A stretch of DNA of 64,000 nt, from the NCBI GenBank assembly GCA_965238305.1, contig CBDEHK010000001.1, positions 335,816 to 399,815 of the forward strand, in the 5' to 3' direction. The translations under genes and the position numbers were made by a program. Each line of letters starts with the position of its first letter. The first letter of the stretch is position 1. The stretch is from Alphaproteobacteria bacterium. Its GTDB lineage: Bacteria; Pseudomonadota; Alphaproteobacteria; GCA-2731375. Positions 6,820 to 52,664 of this stretch are shown here, piece by piece. The notes under the pieces were generated by a model. The model worked only from the letters and a program-made list of their open reading frames with translations. It had not been told where the DNA came from and did not search any database.

Positions 6820-7739
6820 GATCGCACCATGTCTTGAAATTGCGCCCACACCTCCGCCACTGGCAGTTCGGCTAGATCATCCCGTTGAAGATAGCCAGCA
6901 CTGGGCCCACGGGGGGCGCAGCGAACAGGATTTGAGGCGGCGGAAAACAGCGCAACAAAGGGCGCACCGGCAAGTGCGGCGATATGAGAGGGGCCGGTAT
7001 CATTGCCGACCCCACCACAGGCGCGCGCGGCAATTGCGGCGATTTCTTGAAAACTGGTCTGTCCGCTCAAGTCGATAACCCCGGCAATATCTGCGCCGAA
7101 GGCAGTTTCGTCCTTGCCGCCAATGATCACCGGCATGATCCCGACCGCGTACAATTTGGCCGCAAACTCAGCATAATATTCTTCTGGCCAACGTTTTGCC
7201 AAACGATGGGCCGAGCCGCCGGGGATCAGGACAGCAAAGCGTTCGGGTAAATCGAACCGGCCAATATCAGCCTCGACCCAAGAGAAGTCAGTGAGCGGTA
7301 CGTTTTCTAACCCGGCAATGCGCAACTGATCCCGCTGCCGTTCCACCGTATGCATTTCCCCGCGTGTCGGTGTGTCCTGAAAATGCGAACAGCCGGGCGC
7401 AATACCGGACCATTCTGGGCGCTCCGACTTCGGGAAGAAGCGATAATAGAGATTGCTGCGGTCGGAAGTTTGCAGATCATAGACCCGGGAAAAGCCGCCT
7501 TTGCGAAATTGCTTTCGCATTTTCAAGGTTTTGCCAAGCTGGATAACCGGTGCACGCTCATCAATCCAGATCTCGTCGAAATAGCCGCTCTCTTGCGCCA
7601 AAGTTTCAAAGGGAGAGGTTGTCAGAAGAATAATCTGGGCTTTCGCGTGATGCCGGCGGATTGCCTTGCAAGGCCCTAACGCCAGGACAAAATCGCCCAA
7701 CGCGCCGTGTTTGATAATCAGAATGCGCTCGTTGGTCAT
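6816..7739 (-). CDS. Glycosyltransferase family 9 (LPS heptosyltransferase-like)
   Basis: N-terminal ILIIKHGALGDFVLALGP and C-terminal GNDTGPSHIAA motifs typical of GT9. I chose the ATG at 7739 because it forms an ATGA overlap with the stop of the upstream GT4 gene. The longest ORF reaches 7787. Confidence 0.85.
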   Translation of the reverse strand: MTNERILIIKHGALGDFVLALGPCKAIRRHHAKAQIILLTTSPFETLAQESGYFDEIWIDERAPVIQLGKTLKMRKQFRKGGFSRVYDLQTSDRSNLYYRFFPKSERPEWSGIAPGCSHFQDTPTRGEMHTVERQRDQLRIAGLENVPLTDFSWVEADIGRFDLPERFAVLIPGGSAHRLAKRWPEEYYAEFAAKLYAVGIMPVIIGGKDETAFGADIAGVIDLSGQTSFQEIAAIAARACGGVGNDTGPSHIAALAGAPFVALFSAASNPVRCAPRGPSAGYLQRDDLAELPVAEVWAQFQDMVRS

Positions 7740-36893: not shown

Positions 36894-39110
36894 ATGGCGG
36901 ATGCACAAGCCAGCATTTGGGAAGACCGGCGGCAACGTTGTCACGTGTTATTGCCGTTGCCCTTGGGCACCGCCTATGATTATGCCATACCAAGCGAAAT
37001 GCCGGTGGAAGTCGGCAGTTTTGTCCGCGTACCGCTTGGCAATCGTATGGTCAACGGGGTGATTTGGGGATTAGGCAGCGCCGATCCCGAAAATGCCGTC
37101 GGCGACAATCGGCTGCGCGATATCGCCGACGATCATCCGGTGCCTCCGATGCCTGAAGTTACGCGCCAGTTCGTCGAATGGGTGGCGAATTACACCTGCA
37201 ACGATGTCGGTTCGGTCTTGCGGATGGCGATGAGTGCGCCTGCCGCCCTGGAAGTGCCGAAACCGCGGCTTGCGTTCGAACTTTCCGGTCCCCCGCCTGA
37301 TCGCATGACCCCGGCGCGTAGCCGGGTGATCGATTTATTGGCGGCACAACCGTCCCCGACCCCCCTGTCGATGGCAGAAATCACCACCCATGCCGGCGTC
37401 GGCAATAGCGTGGTTCGTGGCCTTCTGAGCGCCGGCACCATTGCCGAAGTGTTCTTGAGTGGCGAAGCGGCTTATCCCCGCCCCGACCCAAACTGCAAAG
37501 GCCCCATATTAACCGCCGATCAATCGTCGGTCGCGGAAGCTTTGGTCAAAGAGGTCAATAAAGGCGGATACAAAGCCGCCCTCATTGACGGTGTTACTGG
37601 GGCCGGCAAAACCGAAGTTTATTTCGAAGCCGTCGGCGAAGCGCTGCGGCAAAACAAACAAGTAGCGGTCTTGTTGCCGGAAATTTCATTGACCTCGCAA
37701 TGGCTTACACGTTTTGAGGATCGCTTCGGTGTGGCCCCGACGCTTTGGCATTCAGAACTGAAAACGGCGGAACGCCGACGCAACTGGCGGGCCATTGCCG
37801 ATGGCCGAGCTCGCGTCGTGGTCGGCGCCCGCTCCGCTTTATTCCTGCCCTATAATGCCTTGGGCCTGATCGTCGTCGACGAAGAACATGATCGCGCCTT
37901 CAAGCAGGAAGATGGGGTTATTTATCATGCCCGTGACATGGCCGTGGCCCGTGCCTCCCTCGCGGATATTCCAATTATTCTCGCCTCGGCCACCCCCAGC
38001 CTGGAAAGCTTGATGAATGCAGAGCGCGGCCGCTATGACATACACCGGCTCAGCAAGCGGGTCGGCGGCGCCGAGTTACCGGATATCGAAGCCATCGACA
38101 TGCGCGTTGCTCCGCCGTTGCGGGGCGAATGGCTGTCGCCCATCCTCATCGAGGCGGTCAGCGAACGGTTGGAGAAACAGGAGCAATCCCTGCTGTTCCT
38201 GAACCGCCGGGGATACGCGCCATTGACCCTATGCCGAACCTGTGGGCATCGTTTGGAATGCCCTCATTGCAGCGCCTGGCTGGTCGAACATCGGTTTCAT
38301 GGCCGACTGCAATGTCACCATTGCGGTTTCTCCATGCGCCAACCCGATACCTGCCCAGAATGCGAATCGGAAGCGTCCTTAGTCGCCTGCGGCCCTGGTG
38401 TCGAGCGCTTGTTGGAGGAAGTCGGCGTGCATTGGCCCGACGCCCGGGCCATGGTGATCGCCAGCGACACGGTCTACAAACCGGCGATGGTGGTCGAAGC
38501 CATCCGCCGGATCAAGGATCACGAAGTCGATTTGATCATCGGCACCCAGATCATCGCCAAGGGTCATCATTTCCCGCTTTTGACCCTGGTCGGTGTGGTT
38601 GATGCCGATCTTGGTTTGAATGGCGGCGATTTGCGGGCCGCAGAATTGACCTTTCAACTTCTGTCACAAGTTTCCGGACGGGCGGGACGGGCGGAAAAAC
38701 CAGGCCAAGCCATGTTGCAGACCCATATGCCGGAACATCCGGTGATGCAGGCCATGGTCTCCGGCGATCGCGATCGCTTCCTGGCCCAAGAGCAGGAAGC
38801 CCGAAAGCTGCAAGGGCTGCCTCCATTTGGGCGTTTGCTGGCATTAATCATCTCCGGGCCGGACGAAGCACTGGTGCAGGAGACGGCAAACCGGTTCGCC
38901 CGCCAGGCACCGCGAAATTCAGCGGTCAATGTCCTTGGCCCGGCGCCCGCACCCTTAACCTTGTTAAGAGGTCGGTTTCGCTATCGCTTGTTAATGAAAG
39001 CAACGCGTTCGACCGATATTTCCGCGTTGGCGCGGCAATGGCGGGCAAGCGTCGACGTCCCCAACAATATCAGGGTTGCGGTTGATATCGATCCCTATAG
39101 CTTCCTTTAA
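36894..39110 (+). CDS. priA: Primosomal replication-restart helicase PriA
   Basis: 738-aa ORF with Walker A (GVTGAGKTEVY), DEEHD and Cys-rich zinc fingers (CRTCGHRLECPHCSAWLVEHRFHGRLQCHHCG). Confidence 0.94.
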   Translation: MADAQASIWEDRRQRCHVLLPLPLGTAYDYAIPSEMPVEVGSFVRVPLGNRMVNGVIWGLGSADPENAVGDNRLRDIADDHPVPPMPEVTRQFVEWVANYTCNDVGSVLRMAMSAPAALEVPKPRLAFELSGPPPDRMTPARSRVIDLLAAQPSPTPLSMAEITTHAGVGNSVVRGLLSAGTIAEVFLSGEAAYPRPDPNCKGPILTADQSSVAEALVKEVNKGGYKAALIDGVTGAGKTEVYFEAVGEALRQNKQVAVLLPEISLTSQWLTRFEDRFGVAPTLWHSELKTAERRRNWRAIADGRARVVVGARSALFLPYNALGLIVVDEEHDRAFKQEDGVIYHARDMAVARASLADIPIILASATPSLESLMNAERGRYDIHRLSKRVGGAELPDIEAIDMRVAPPLRGEWLSPILIEAVSERLEKQEQSLLFLNRRGYAPLTLCRTCGHRLECPHCSAWLVEHRFHGRLQCHHCGFSMRQPDTCPECESEASLVACGPGVERLLEEVGVHWPDARAMVIASDTVYKPAMVVEAIRRIKDHEVDLIIGTQIIAKGHHFPLLTLVGVVDADLGLNGGDLRAAELTFQLLSQVSGRAGRAEKPGQAMLQTHMPEHPVMQAMVSGDRDRFLAQEQEARKLQGLPPFGRLLALIISGPDEALVQETANRFARQAPRNSAVNVLGPAPAPLTLLRGRFRYRLLMKATRSTDISALARQWRASVDVPNNIRVAVDIDPYSFL

Positions 39111-39274
39111 TCAACTGTTGCGTACTATTTCAATTACGTCTCACGTATTCGTCAGGCCAGTTGATTGGTGTTTTTGGTCCTAAAAGCGCAAGTCTAAAAT
39201 GTTGGTAGACCGGGGAACAAAATTGGCCTGGCAACACTATTAAAACAATCACAACAAATAAGAGGCGAACTCGA

Positions 39275-39679
39275 ATGTTGAACAAAAAAACCATTGCGGT
39301 TGCGGCCCTTTTGACGATGGCTGCCGCCGCCCCGCTGCCGATGGCTTATGCCAGTTGCGCGCCCAAAGGCTGCGGTGCCAAAAAATCCTGCAATGCCAAT
39401 CCGTGCGCAACAACGAAAAAAGGCTGTGGCGCCTGCAATCCAAGCGCAACGGCGAAAAAGAAGTGCAACCCCTGTAATCCGTGCGCAACAACGAAAAAGG
39501 GTTGTGGCGCCTGTAATCCGTGTGCAACGGCGAAAAAGAAGTGCAACCCCTGCAATCCGTGCGCAACAACGAAAAAGGGTTGTGGTGCCTGTAATCCATG
39601 CGCAACGGCGAAAAAATGCAACCCCTGCAATCCGTGCGCGACGAAGAAAAAATGCAATCCTTGCAAACCTAAGTCCTAA
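39275..39679 (+). CDS. Secreted, highly basic, cysteine-rich CNPC-repeat protein of unknown function
   Basis: AGAGG lies 9 nt upstream of the ATG. The N-terminus is a Sec-type signal (MLNKKTIAVAALLTMAAAAPLPMAYA). The mature part consists of CNPCNPCATTKKGCGACNPCATAKKK units. A hairpin plus T-tract follows at 39738-39770. Confidence 0.75.
   Translation: MLNKKTIAVAALLTMAAAAPLPMAYASCAPKGCGAKKSCNANPCATTKKGCGACNPSATAKKKCNPCNPCATTKKGCGACNPCATAKKKCNPCNPCATTKKGCGACNPCATAKKCNPCNPCATKKKCNPCKPKS
39398..39660 (+). repeat. Coding tandem repeat: units of 78, 78 and 75 bp plus a partial fourth unit, near-identical
   Basis: Units begin with AATCCGTGCGCAACAACG at 39398, 39476 and 39554, with a degenerate copy at 39629. 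They differ only at a few mostly synonymous positions and by one Lys codon. Confidence 0.9.
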
Positions 39680-39737
39680 TCCCGACTTCCTCCATCGATT
39701 TGGGACATACCAAGACAATATTGGCCAAGTCGATTTC

Positions 39738-39770
39738 GGGCTCGCGCCGGCACAGCGCGGGCCCATTTTC
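39738..39770 (+). terminator. Putative Rho-independent terminator of the Cys-rich gene
   Basis: GGGCTCGCGC (39738-39747) pairs with GCGCGGGCCC (39755-39764) with one G-U pair. The loop is 7 nt, and ATTTTC follows. Confidence 0.6.
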
Positions 39771-39857
39771 ATAACCTCGCTCTTTTCCGTGGCCGTCACC
39801 GATCAGACCGCGTAATCTGCCGCCCTTATTGGTTGCTTATTTGTGGGTTTGAGATTG

Positions 39858-40901: not shown

Positions 40902-41036
40902 ATGCCCGATACCATCGATTACCCCGAAGGCGCCCGATTTATCCGCATCACCGGTACGGATATCGACGATTTGCCGATCCGGCTGTTCAAAGATGTGGAT
41001 GTGCGAAAGACCATCGAAAAATATCTAGGGGCCTGA
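40902..41036 (+). CDS. Candidate 44-aa small protein (MPDTIDYPEGARFIRITGTDIDDLPIRLFKDVDVRKTIEKYLGA)
   Basis: It falls below the ORF-track cutoff. GAGGA lies about 5 nt upstream of the ATG. Its TGA (41034-41036) is 1 nt before the TTG start of the downstream amidohydrolase. Confidence 0.35.
   Translation: MPDTIDYPEGARFIRITGTDIDDLPIRLFKDVDVRKTIEKYLGA

Positions 41037-52587: not shown

Positions 52588-52664
<77 letters not shown>

Follow-up and report, generated by a model that had tools for sequence, protein, structure and literature searches.

A putative exported cysteine/lysine repeat protein as a stand-alone member of the CNP-array family and candidate client of an FGE-fold system

The open reading frame 39275-39679 of the window, that is, of the whole 64-kb stretch of alphaproteobacterial DNA analysed here (64,000 nucleotides), is a genuine, independently expressed-looking gene for a Sec-exported, polycationic Cys/Lys repeat protein. 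Judging by sequence comparison, its product is a minimal stand-alone member of a large and uncharacterised family of CNP-array proteins, unlinked in this case to the usual partner genes. The family itself is large and has never been described before in the literature searched. As a best guess, with a probability of about one in three, the protein would be a periplasmic thiol array serving as a client of a system based on the fold of formylglycine-generating enzymes (FGE). The features on which the description is based are the following.

36894-39110: PriA gene, flanking the gene under study
39260..39265, + strand: Shine-Dalgarno sequence AAGAGG, read from the sequence, 9 nt before the ATG
39275..39679, + strand: Cys/Lys-rich open reading frame, ATG start, 134 aa
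39275..39352, + strand: signal peptide, aa 1-26, MLNKKTIAVAALLTMAAAAPLPMAYA; Sec-type (KK, no RR), with a conserved N-terminus
39353..39676, + strand: mature protein, 108 aa, predicted to be disordered (AlphaFold2)
39397..39651, + strand: tandem repeat of 3.3 copies with a 78-bp period and a 39-bp sub-period (TRF score 412, 90% matches)
39617..39679, + strand: conserved C-terminal tail CNPCNPCATKKKCNPCKPKS plus stop codon, from orthologue comparison
39738..39774, + strand: intrinsic-terminator-like hairpin (GGGCTCGCGCC...GCGCGGGCCC) followed by ATTTTCATAA
39843-40838: gene for an ApbA/PanE-family reductase, flanking the gene under study

The whole product contains 23 Cys and 24 Lys. Its signal peptide, which aligns with those of the small family members P0092 and P0100 (MLKKTVTA...), is probably cleaved between AYA and the following Ser, a site that also fits signal peptidase I. 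The mature part is restricted to eight kinds of residue (23 Cys, 21.3%; 22 Lys, 20.4%; 16 Ala, 13 Pro, 12 Asn, 10 Thr, 8 Gly and 4 Ser), with no aromatic, His or acidic ones. Its 12 overlapping CxxC motifs (nine CNPC and three CGAC) take in 19 of the 23 Cys. The four most N-terminal Cys (28, 33, 39 and 44) have a spacing of 4-5, and one degenerate unit carries NPS, not NPC, at residue 56. With 14.7% Cys, the reading frame ranks first when the 187 stretches of the window that stay free of stops for 100 codons or more are compared; the median is 1.9% and the next-highest value 8.0%, and chance is a very poor explanation of such an outlier. AlphaFold2, run with a 75-sequence alignment, predicts a disordered protein without a fold (mean pLDDT 46.5, pTM 0.16, no secondary structure).

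The DNA repeat encodes (CNPCNPCATTKKG-CGACNPCATAKKK)n, the unit being read as CNPCNPCATTKKG + CGACNPCATAKK(K). The third unit has 75 bp, one Lys codon short, and units 1 and 2 differ at five codons, four of them synonymous and one nonsynonymous. The unit lengths of the original prediction (78, 78 and 75 bp plus a partial unit) are borne out by Tandem Repeats Finder and the unit listing. Its signal peptide followed by a CxxC protein with 23 Cys (21.3% of the 108-aa mature part) and its location between priA and a reductase gene are confirmed as well.

Positional orthologues were located through PriA homologues in two relatives. That of the PriA-80% relative (L164) has 78 aa and no DNA repeat, and that of the PriA-71% relative (L165) has 128 aa with a different unit, of 42 bp x 5.5, indicating that the gene is conserved while its arrays expanded separately in each lineage. 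Thus, the repeat number of the window gene has grown in its own lineage, and the expansion that had been proposed for it is supported in this lineage-specific form. The N-termini of the orthologues are conserved (MLTKKTIAAAALLTMAAAVPAPITAYAGC and MSLKNTVAAVAVLAMAAAIPATTVYAGC), and in all three proteins a Cys lies two residues past AYA (mature position +2 in the window protein, AYA-S-C). The C-terminal tail is nearly identical in L164, CNPCNPCATKKACNPCKPKS, and L165 terminates in CGACNPCKPKPKS. Scanning of metagenomes for close orthologues returned repeat-level relatives only, none of them in a priA context.

The expression signals also recur. Ribosome-binding sites GAGAGG and AAGGAG precede the L164 and L165 orthologues, respectively, and G+C-rich hairpins followed by T runs lie 3' of both, so that the Shine-Dalgarno sequence and terminator previously assigned to the window gene are not only found there. 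The window hairpin (39738-39764) has 10 pairs, 9 of them G-C, with ATTTTC directly after it; since one terminator-like site was observed and 2.0 +/- 1.4 are expected in shuffles, the hairpin alone is not significant. The existence of a real gene is argued by the conservation of the ribosome-binding site, signal peptide, tail and terminator in the priA-linked orthologues, together with the mostly synonymous differences between units.

Homologues of the window protein are abundant, with 350 protein matches (E-values down to 1e-27) and 350 representative clusters at E<=1e-3, and at least 441 array loci were confirmed in species-representative genomes. The carriers, numbering hundreds, are mainly marine Proteobacteria, many of them from oxygen-minimum zones, sediments and vents. 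As in the family, the window protein consists of a signal peptide followed by tandem (C/x)NPC units with Ala/Lys spacers; other members have a spacer of 15-40 residues before the first Cys, some contain up to about 110 Cys, and Zetaproteobacterial arrays include Met (NPCNPCSMKKM). In 326 proteins with 6720 Cys, CNPC accounts for 83% of the CxxC motifs and 59% of the Cys follow Asn-Pro, and the C, N and P columns of the family alignment are invariant. This conservation of Asn-Pro is stricter than metal chelation alone would need.

Most arrays extend periplasmic c-type haem domains at the N- or C-terminus, these domains being either cytochrome P460-like or SoxA-like. The former belong to the cytochrome P460 family, and a phmmer search of the P460-like domain against the PDB matched no solved P460. 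The latter resemble the N-terminal domain of SoxA (1H31, E 3.7e-9) and conserve the His of CxxCH and the Cys of 'QMINxC', which we take to align with the SoxA haem ligands His80 and Cys114.

Neither Pfam nor NCBIfam gives a match to the window protein at E<=10, and the PDB gives nothing below E 0.2, only insignificant matches to a CXXC finger (TET3, E 0.22) and to SMYD2; the literature searched contained nothing relevant on CNPC-array proteins or on DUF6969 (PF22308), a domain encoded beside many of them. The original statement that no characterised family with this architecture was known thus holds, and the homologue search it called for leaves the protein uncharacterised; the picture of a lone protein is not maintained, taking into account the size of the family and its usual neighbours, an FGE-fold protein and DUF6969.

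A protein with an FGE-sulfatase domain (Pfam E 4e-42) is encoded by 43 of 79 loci from genomes and by 18 of 30 loci from metagenomes (at least 6 kb). Of the family loci, 88 reach at least 8 kb. Among these, 48 encode both FGE and DUF6969, 9 only DUF6969 and 1 only FGE, and the other 30, a Zetaproteobacteria locus being one of them, encode neither; the pattern is common to P460-type, SoxA-type and small stand-alone arrays. The FGE-fold partner has a signal peptide and an invariant GGSWDD.GCG[VI]CR.AAR (37/37), in the loop that matches the catalytic Cys loop of FGE. In the PDB, the proteobacterial partner finds its best matches in ToxD, CalU17, OvsA and SUMF2, which is inactive; FGE follows only at about 1e-12, and the NCBIfam scores of the partner fall far under every cut-off. 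It is a divergent FGE-fold protein and a putative enzyme. Only two sulfatase-like signatures, both weak, were found in 175 loci, which leaves no other obvious FGE client nearby. DUF6969 has no signal peptide and about 5,700 homologues; its fold is predicted confidently, has no solved relative, and its model gave no Foldseek match in the PDB.

In a distant locus (L174), a canonical CxxxxC FGE gene directly follows the gene for an NPC-array-P460 protein, and genes for TlpA-like, thioredoxin, CcdA, Rieske and cytochrome b proteins are also present; the CcdA/Trx/TlpA cluster is a supply of reductant to the periplasm. Plastocyanin-like genes lie directly downstream of the arrays in 7 of 79 genome loci, and cupredoxin-like genes are adjacent in 12 of 79. 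In some loci there are genes for YeeE/Sulf_transp, DUF302, MsrB, Redoxin or glutaredoxin. Other neighbours were set aside as synteny, each being confined to a single clade: SufB/Rrf2, MCP, histidine kinase, MFS and LLM monooxygenase, as well as ApbE, L,D-transpeptidase-like and GlnA.

The window gene has neither the usual family neighbourhood nor a haem fusion, and tblastn with all locus ORFs plus DUF6969 found no FGE-fold, DUF6969, P460 or cupredoxin-like gene in the 64 kb. Its further neighbours are genes for an amidohydrolase, an ABC ATPase and a transaldolase.

It is proposed that the array cysteines are the working parts of the protein, present in the periplasm as reduced thiols or thiolates, and that the array would act as a multivalent client, its enzyme being the secreted FGE-fold protein found with arrays in most genomes. 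FGE works on unfolded chains, and the motif it recognises in sulfatases is C-x-P-x-R. The invariant C-x-P of the array would correspond to the core of this motif, and the predicted disorder of the array is a supporting detail. The invariant CGxC loop of the partner would be located where FGE holds Cu(I), and these two coincidences lead to the chemistry proposed, in which array Cys would be captured as Cu(I)-thiolates and then oxidised, the product being formylglycine or some other oxidised or cross-linked form. Electrons could come from the low-potential haem domains and cupredoxins fused or adjacent in other loci. In the genome studied here, the FGE-fold enzyme would be encoded outside the 64-kb window.

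Some facts weigh against this client reading. C-x-P occurs nine times in the window protein, each time with Ala or Asn at +4 and thus with neither Arg nor Lys in that place; Lys at +3/+4 is found only after Cys without Pro. No array Cys combines Pro at +2 with a basic residue at +4, the arrays reading C-N-P-C-A and C-A-A-K-K, and at least one third of the array Cys (those of CGAC and the last Cys of a block) lie outside a C-x-P context. The partners, moreover, are absent from the window, and both are absent near 30 of the 88 family loci.

A live alternative, somewhat less probable and one of the roles suggested originally (beside a thiol buffer and a polycationic peptide), is a metallothionein-like periplasmic sponge, in which reduced CxxC/CxxCxxC motifs would chelate Cu(I), Zn or Cd in thiolate clusters, Lys would balance the charge and capacity would scale with repeat number. 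The composition of the protein, with Lys beside the Cys, fits well, the apo form is predicted to be disordered, and repeat number differs between lineages. The CGxCxxC-x5-CGxCxxC spacing is that of the Zn-binding core of CXXC zinc fingers, which is reflected in the weak TET3 matches and in the precomputed PF02008 flags on two homologues only (P0036 and P0115); hmmscan gave no PF02008 match to the window protein. Met, found in the Zetaproteobacterial variants, is a typical Cu(I) ligand of the periplasm, cupredoxin-type neighbours occur, and L174 has a dedicated CcdA/Trx/TlpA reductant system. However, no genes for copper, zinc, cadmium or mercury resistance and no metal regulators recur in the 175 loci, no metallothionein model of Pfam or NCBIfam matches, and Asn-Pro is near-invariant, whereas metallothioneins tolerate variable residues between Cys. 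Furthermore, the periplasm is oxidising and, to our knowledge, the characterised bacterial metallothioneins are cytoplasmic. A sponge would also leave unexplained the P460-like and SoxA-like fusions and the FGE-fold and DUF6969 pair. Taking into account the strict C-N-P, the FGE-fold neighbour, the low-potential haem fusions and the CcdA/Trx/TlpA cluster of one locus, the family context points to enzyme-coupled thiol chemistry at least as strongly as to a metal sponge, as far as sequence can tell.

Rather unlikely is a haem-coupled thiol/disulfide or sulfur-carrier relay, in which the array would exchange electrons or sulfur with periplasmic haem enzymes of low potential, in the manner of SoxY-Cys and SoxAX, cycling between dithiol and disulfide or bearing persulfide, thiosulfonate or nitroso adducts; the stand-alone protein would then be a diffusible version of the module. 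Fusion to two unrelated types of low-potential haem domain speaks for it, as do the plastocyanin-type genes directly downstream, the sulfur and redox genes of some loci, the thioredoxins, CcdA, TlpA-like protein and Rieske/cytochrome b of L174, and the Lys residues, which would lower the thiol pKa. C-x-P-C is also the active-site pattern of thioredoxins, but no thioredoxin fold is predicted for the window protein (pLDDT 46.5, no secondary structure) and no Pfam thioredoxin model matches. In addition, one Cys suffices for a catalytic carrier, whereas arrays have 20-110, sox, dsr and tsdA genes do not recur beside them, the sulfur and redox neighbours are lineage-specific, and no haem partner is encoded in the 64-kb window.

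A broader form of the client reading can be put forward as a speculation with little probability of its own: arrays of 20 to about 110 Cys would constitute a new periplasmic module, in which an FGE-fold copper/thiol enzyme and DUF6969 service a poly-Cys scaffold wired to low-potential haems and cupredoxins, and where the enzyme would turn many array Cys into formylglycine aldehydes, which together with the abundant Lys would give a self-cross-linking or amine/hydroxylamine-trapping polymer. Were this so, FGE would have in the arrays its first multi-site client outside the sulfatases, and bacteria would have an analogue of the copper-dependent cross-linking by lysyl oxidase.

It is improbable that the protein is a structural or surface-active peptide, either a disulfide-laddered polycationic component of the envelope (possibly a lipoprotein, cf. 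the Cys-rich proteins of the chlamydial envelope) or a cationic antimicrobial peptide released by the cell. It is strongly cationic, Cys-rich and secreted, and the Cys following AYA could in principle be lipidated in the three orthologues; compared with the lipobox ([LVI][ASTVI][GAS]C), the window protein reads Y-A-S-C and the orthologues Y-A-G-C, with the Cys present but an unusual Tyr at -3. The 15-40 residue spacer of other members speaks against this reading, neither the haem-enzyme fusions nor the conserved enzyme neighbourhood would be expected, immunity or export genes are not adjacent, and no regular fold is predicted.

That the reading frame is non-functional, a stop-free by-product of the tandem repeat or the shadow of a true gene in another frame or strand, is very hard to credit: other frames are open (39194-39799, - strand, 201 aa; 39348-39815, + strand, 155 aa; 39346-39666, - strand, 106 aa), the L164 orthologue is not annotated as a gene by its source, and exact look-up in a gene-position collection has neither the window protein nor the neighbouring transaldolase on record, but only the 39275-39679 (+) frame has a ribosome-binding site, a signal peptide, hundreds of homologues and mostly synonymous changes between units, and the repeat-free L164 orthologue keeps the same protein architecture. 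The alternative frames were rejected as by-products of the repeat.

Other candidates were also discarded: an Fe-S protein, on account of Sec and not Tat export; a RiPP precursor, as no radical SAM or cyclodehydratase-type enzymes recur in the 175 loci, arrays are fused to haem proteins, and the window neighbours are PriA, the ApbA-like reductase, the amidohydrolase and the ABC ATPase. DNA binding is unlikely in an exported protein.

Whatever their role, hundreds of mostly marine Proteobacteria export proteins with tens to about 100 Cys, often fused to haem domains, and DUF6969 gains its first genomic context through association with them. Should the FGE-fold neighbour have the arrays as its clients, the chemistry of formylglycine would reach beyond sulfatases. 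As metal sponges, they would be, as far as is known, the first Sec-exported bacterial proteins of metallothionein type, with a bearing on how copper, zinc and cadmium cycle in seas poor in oxygen; as redox or sulfur relays, they would be a further component of nitrogen or sulfur oxidation in the periplasm. The small stand-alone gene of the window offers a convenient minimal member for biochemistry.

Some known systems resemble the window protein in part. The spacing shared with CXXC zinc fingers (PF02008) belongs there to nuclear domains of eukaryotes that bind DNA, adopt a defined fold and have two more Cys. SoxY and SoxAX, like the arrays, tie a periplasmic Cys polypeptide to a His/Cys-ligated c-type haem, and one of the fused domains is homologous to the N-terminal haem domain of SoxA; however, SoxY is a folded carrier whose GGCGG arm bears only one Cys, while arrays lack sox genes and no haem partner lies near the window gene. 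Csp1, the exported copper storage protein of methanotrophs, also has many Cys, and the window protein could likewise buffer Cu(I) outside the cytoplasm, but Csp1 is a folded four-helix bundle exported via Tat, and the window protein, a repeat predicted to be disordered and exported by Sec, shows no similarity to it.

Metallothioneins (SmtA/BmtA, MymT and the eukaryotic ones) are similarly small, with a Cys content above 20%, CxxC motifs and Lys next to Cys, with neither aromatic residues nor His, with a predicted unfolded state without ligand and with a variable number of domains or repeats, and the window protein has this composition (108 aa mature, 21.3% Cys, 12 CxxC). It differs from them in showing no sequence similarity to any metallothionein family, in its Sec export, in the rigid Asn-Pro spacer of the array and in the fusion of the array module to haem enzymes elsewhere.

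From the FGE/sulfatase system the arrays differ in having neither Arg at +4 nor a sulfatase fold, and in the number of motifs on each chain, dozens against one; the proteobacterial partner, with CGxC in place of CxxxxC, is nearer in the PDB to ToxD, CalU17 and SUMF2 than to active FGEs, and no FGE-fold gene lies in the window. Even so, the FGE-fold protein is the most widespread neighbour of the arrays and keeps a Cys pair in its catalytic loop, the C-x-P of the arrays has the Cys and the Pro of the motif that FGE recognises, and the array is, like FGE substrates, unfolded, by prediction, and exported.

The CNPC-array gene was found exactly as the original prediction had described it, including mature protein length, Cys count, repeat period, a Shine-Dalgarno sequence, a hairpin and flanking genes (priA on one side, on the other a reductase gene, here assigned to the ApbA/PanE family):

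39275-39679 (+), CNPC-array ORF, 134 aa, 23 Cys, 24 Lys
39397-39651, tandem DNA repeat (Tandem Repeats Finder), period 78 bp, 3.3 copies, 90% matches, sub-period 39 bp
9 nt 5' of the ATG, Shine-Dalgarno AAGAGG
39738-39764, hairpin of 10 pairs, 9 of them G-C, then ATTTTC

The protein begins with a signal peptide (MLNKKTIA...) and ends in ...CNPCKPKS. After the likely cleavage between AYA and S, the mature form of 108 aa consists only of C (21.3%), K (20.4%), A, P, N, T, G and S. Its 12 overlapping CxxC motifs (9 CNPC and 3 CGAC) cover 19 of the 23 Cys, and one degenerate unit carries NPS at residue 56. With a Cys content of 14.7%, this is the strongest outlier among the 187 stop-free stretches of the window (median 1.9%). 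AlphaFold2, supplied with 75 homologues, gave a pLDDT of 46.5 and no secondary structure. The protein is exported, polycationic and poly-cysteine, with no predicted fold.

Since the repeat leaves other frames open, independent support for the gene was sought. ORFs of 106-201 aa overlap it at 39194-39799 (-), 39348-39815 (+), 39346-39666 (-) and 39249-39605 (-); these were rejected as stop-free stretches that the repeat produces and that could be mis-called as genes, and antisense ORFs of this kind formed a cluster of their own in related loci. Two contigs, L164 and L165, share the order DUF484, transaldolase, priA with the window and carry an orthologue in the same slot.

Genes following priA in the window and its two relatives
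Window: 134 aa; DNA repeat 78 bp x 3.3
L164 (PriA 80% identical): ORF 7368-7604, between priA and an ApbA-like gene; 78 aa; no DNA repeat; MLTKKTIAAAALLTMAAAVPAPITAYAGCAPKACSAK...CNPCNPCATKKACNPCKPKS
L165 (PriA 71% identical): called gene; 128 aa; DNA repeat 42 bp x 5.5, coding (ACGACNPCAAKKKK)n; same head and tail

Each of the three is preceded by a Shine-Dalgarno sequence and followed by a G+C-rich hairpin and T run, and at the five codons where units 1 and 2 of the window array disagree, four of the changes are synonymous. Taking into account these orthologues, their common signals and the mostly synonymous differences, the gene is real and kept in a narrow alphaproteobacterial clade, the closest named PriA matches being Alphaproteobacteria and Rhodospirillaceae MAGs. 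The recent expansion proposed from the sequence is upheld, the arrays having grown independently in each of the three lineages. Other genes fill the slot in relatives whose PriA is 65-66% identical, and the region 3' of priA seems variable; phage tail sheath/tube genes (Phage_sheath_1, T4_gp19-like) occupy it in L166 (5259-6668), L167 and L168 (PriA ~66%). The 78-aa orthologue was left uncalled by its source annotation and the window protein has no entry in the gene-position collection; small members are probably under-annotated.

Pfam, NCBIfam, PDB and the literature searched returned nothing on the window protein, in agreement with the claim that no characterised family has this architecture. 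The database search for CNPC-repeat proteins that had been proposed as a check did recover homologues, whose taxonomy and neighbourhoods were recorded, and these matches show that the protein is not a singleton. A large protein collection contains 350 homologues (a profile search of 1.84 billion representatives gave 350 clusters at E≤1e-3, 101 of them at E≤1e-10), and at least 441 loci were confirmed in species-representative genomes. Carriers are mostly marine Alphaproteobacteria (Rhodospirillales, Kiloniellales, Hyphomicrobiales and Sneathiellales, including the cultured Sneathiella sp. HT1-7), with some Gammaproteobacteria; array-bearing matches annotated as Zetaproteobacteria/Mariprofundaceae and Acidobacteria also appeared in the protein search, and the analysis covered their loci too. 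Across 326 proteins and 6720 Cys, CNPC makes up 83% of CxxC motifs and Asn-Pro precedes 59% of Cys. The arrays are composed of C (22%), A (19%), P (17%), N (16%) and K (12%), while no aromatic, acidic or His class reaches 1%.

Small stand-alone arrays (~80-190 aa), such as the window protein, are one form of this CNP-array family. More commonly, the array makes up the N-terminal portion of a bigger exported protein, sometimes present at both ends, whose usual C-terminal domain belongs to the cytochrome P460 family (PF16694; 68 of 79 genome loci); some of these proteins reach ~110 Cys by naive ORF calling. By the same calling, giant proteins (L040 3401-5725, L039 3653-5728, L018 5428-7245) have ~600-770 aa and 81-110 Cys, with pure (CNP)n runs and a P460-like domain at the C-terminal end, and include cases of two arrays parted by a conserved C-[YVF]-[VI]-P-R-[LM] segment. 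In Gamma- and Zetaproteobacteria, the fused domain is instead of the mono-haem SoxA/TsdA type (PF21342). It matches SoxA 1H31 (E 3.7e-9), its CxxCH His and 'QMINxC' Cys aligning, by residue count, with His80 and Cys114, which we take to be the SoxA haem ligands. P460-type and SoxA-type haems are known as low-potential types.

Two genes recur across lineages and architectures: DUF6969 (PF22308; 51/79 genome loci, 17/30 metagenome loci ≥6 kb) and a secreted protein with an FGE-sulfatase domain (Pfam E 4e-42; 43/79 and 18/30, respectively). Among 88 loci of at least 8 kb, 48 have both, nine DUF6969 alone, one the FGE-fold gene alone and 30 neither, a pattern common to P460-type, SoxA-type and haem-less loci. 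In several, a small stand-alone array gene lies directly upstream of DUF6969, and the signal peptides of such arrays (MLKKTVTA...) align with that of the window protein. The array module is repeatedly coupled by evolution to periplasmic haem domains and to this gene pair.

The FGE-fold protein is divergent, its best PDB matches being ToxD, CalU17, OvsA and SUMF2, with FGE itself at only ~1e-12 and every NCBIfam score far below cut-off. GGSWDD.GCG[VI]CR.AAR is kept in all 37 copies examined; the loop corresponding to the catalytic Cu(I)-binding Cys loop of FGE has CxxC, whereas FGE has CxxxxC. The CGxC subfamily (e.g., L038 4531-5415) was seen in 56 loci. DUF6969 (e.g., L002 8413-9138, L001 8586-9353 and L003 8400-9173, all outside the window) has ~5,700 homologues, none named, and a His-rich invariant core, WDHYP...HSQYYYHAHP...EHGHFHTF. 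It has no signal peptide, yet is tightly paired with a secreted partner. AlphaFold models it with confidence (pLDDT 89, pTM 0.90), and the model has no match in PDB (best E 0.72, TM 0.19).

Of the 79 genome loci, 12 have cupredoxin-like genes and 7 have plastocyanin-type ones. At L174, a locus of Acidobacteria type, a canonical FGE (GGSWFCSENYCGAYR) comes after an NPC-array-P460 gene, among genes for a TlpA-like protein (CGPC), thioredoxin, CcdA, Rieske protein and cytochrome b. At the Zetaproteobacteria locus there are a multihaem cytochrome, Redoxin and glutaredoxin, with FGE-fold gene and DUF6969 both absent. A second recurrent context (L009, L010, L015, L048, L054, L063), also without the pair, runs class II aldolase (-), array-P460, plastocyanin-type blue copper protein, methyl-accepting chemotaxis protein. 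In Kiloniellaceae-type loci (L051, L057, L069, L075, L083), the array gene is divergent beside an Rrf2 regulator and sufB; the adjacency is probably clade-specific synteny, and an Rrf2-regulated promoter is possible. None of the family partners (FGE-fold, DUF6969, haem, cupredoxin-like) was found in the 64 kb of the window, and the priA context was found at no other family locus. The sole Rfam match in the window is a tRNA gene at 52588-52661 (+) (71.6 bits), and a 44-aa ORF (40902-41036, +) lies between the reductase and amidohydrolase genes.

We infer three readings, given in rank order. The array may be a client of the FGE-fold enzyme, to which we assign a probability of roughly one in three. 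The motif recognised by FGE has C-x-P at its core, and FGE works on unfolded exported chains via a Cu(I) tris-thiolate intermediate; recognition by an enzyme accounts for the nearly invariant C-N-P better than chelation does. No other client was found nearby, with only two sulfatase-like signatures, both weak, in 175 loci. The haems, cupredoxins and reductant system would provide the electrons and reduced thiols needed by FGE-type chemistry. However, the +4 Arg is absent, the partner enzyme is divergent, and a third of loci, like the window itself, have no FGE-fold gene nearby.

A metallothionein-like sponge is a possible, tentative second choice. The composition and predicted disorder fit it, as do a spacing like that of CXXC fingers, variants that contain Met, and scalable repeats; the lack of a metal-resistance context and the rigid Asn-Pro argue against it, and it leaves the haem fusions unexplained. 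These fusions, with some sulfur/thiol-redox neighbours, would fit a haem-coupled thiol or sulfur relay, a reading made somewhat doubtful by the very high Cys count and the lack of sox genes. A structural or antimicrobial role is unlikely, and that the ORF is no gene at all far more so.

Compared with known systems, the window protein has the composition by which metallothioneins are defined but is not one by sequence, and it matches the FGE substrate motif in part. Its assignment as a CXXC finger, a thioredoxin or a RiPP precursor was rejected in each case, and the Y-A-[SG]-C around the likely cleavage site raises the question of a lipoprotein. That it belongs to a categorically new multi-site formylglycine scaffold system is quite doubtful; it is rated as a variant of either the metallothionein-like or the FGE-client-like kind.
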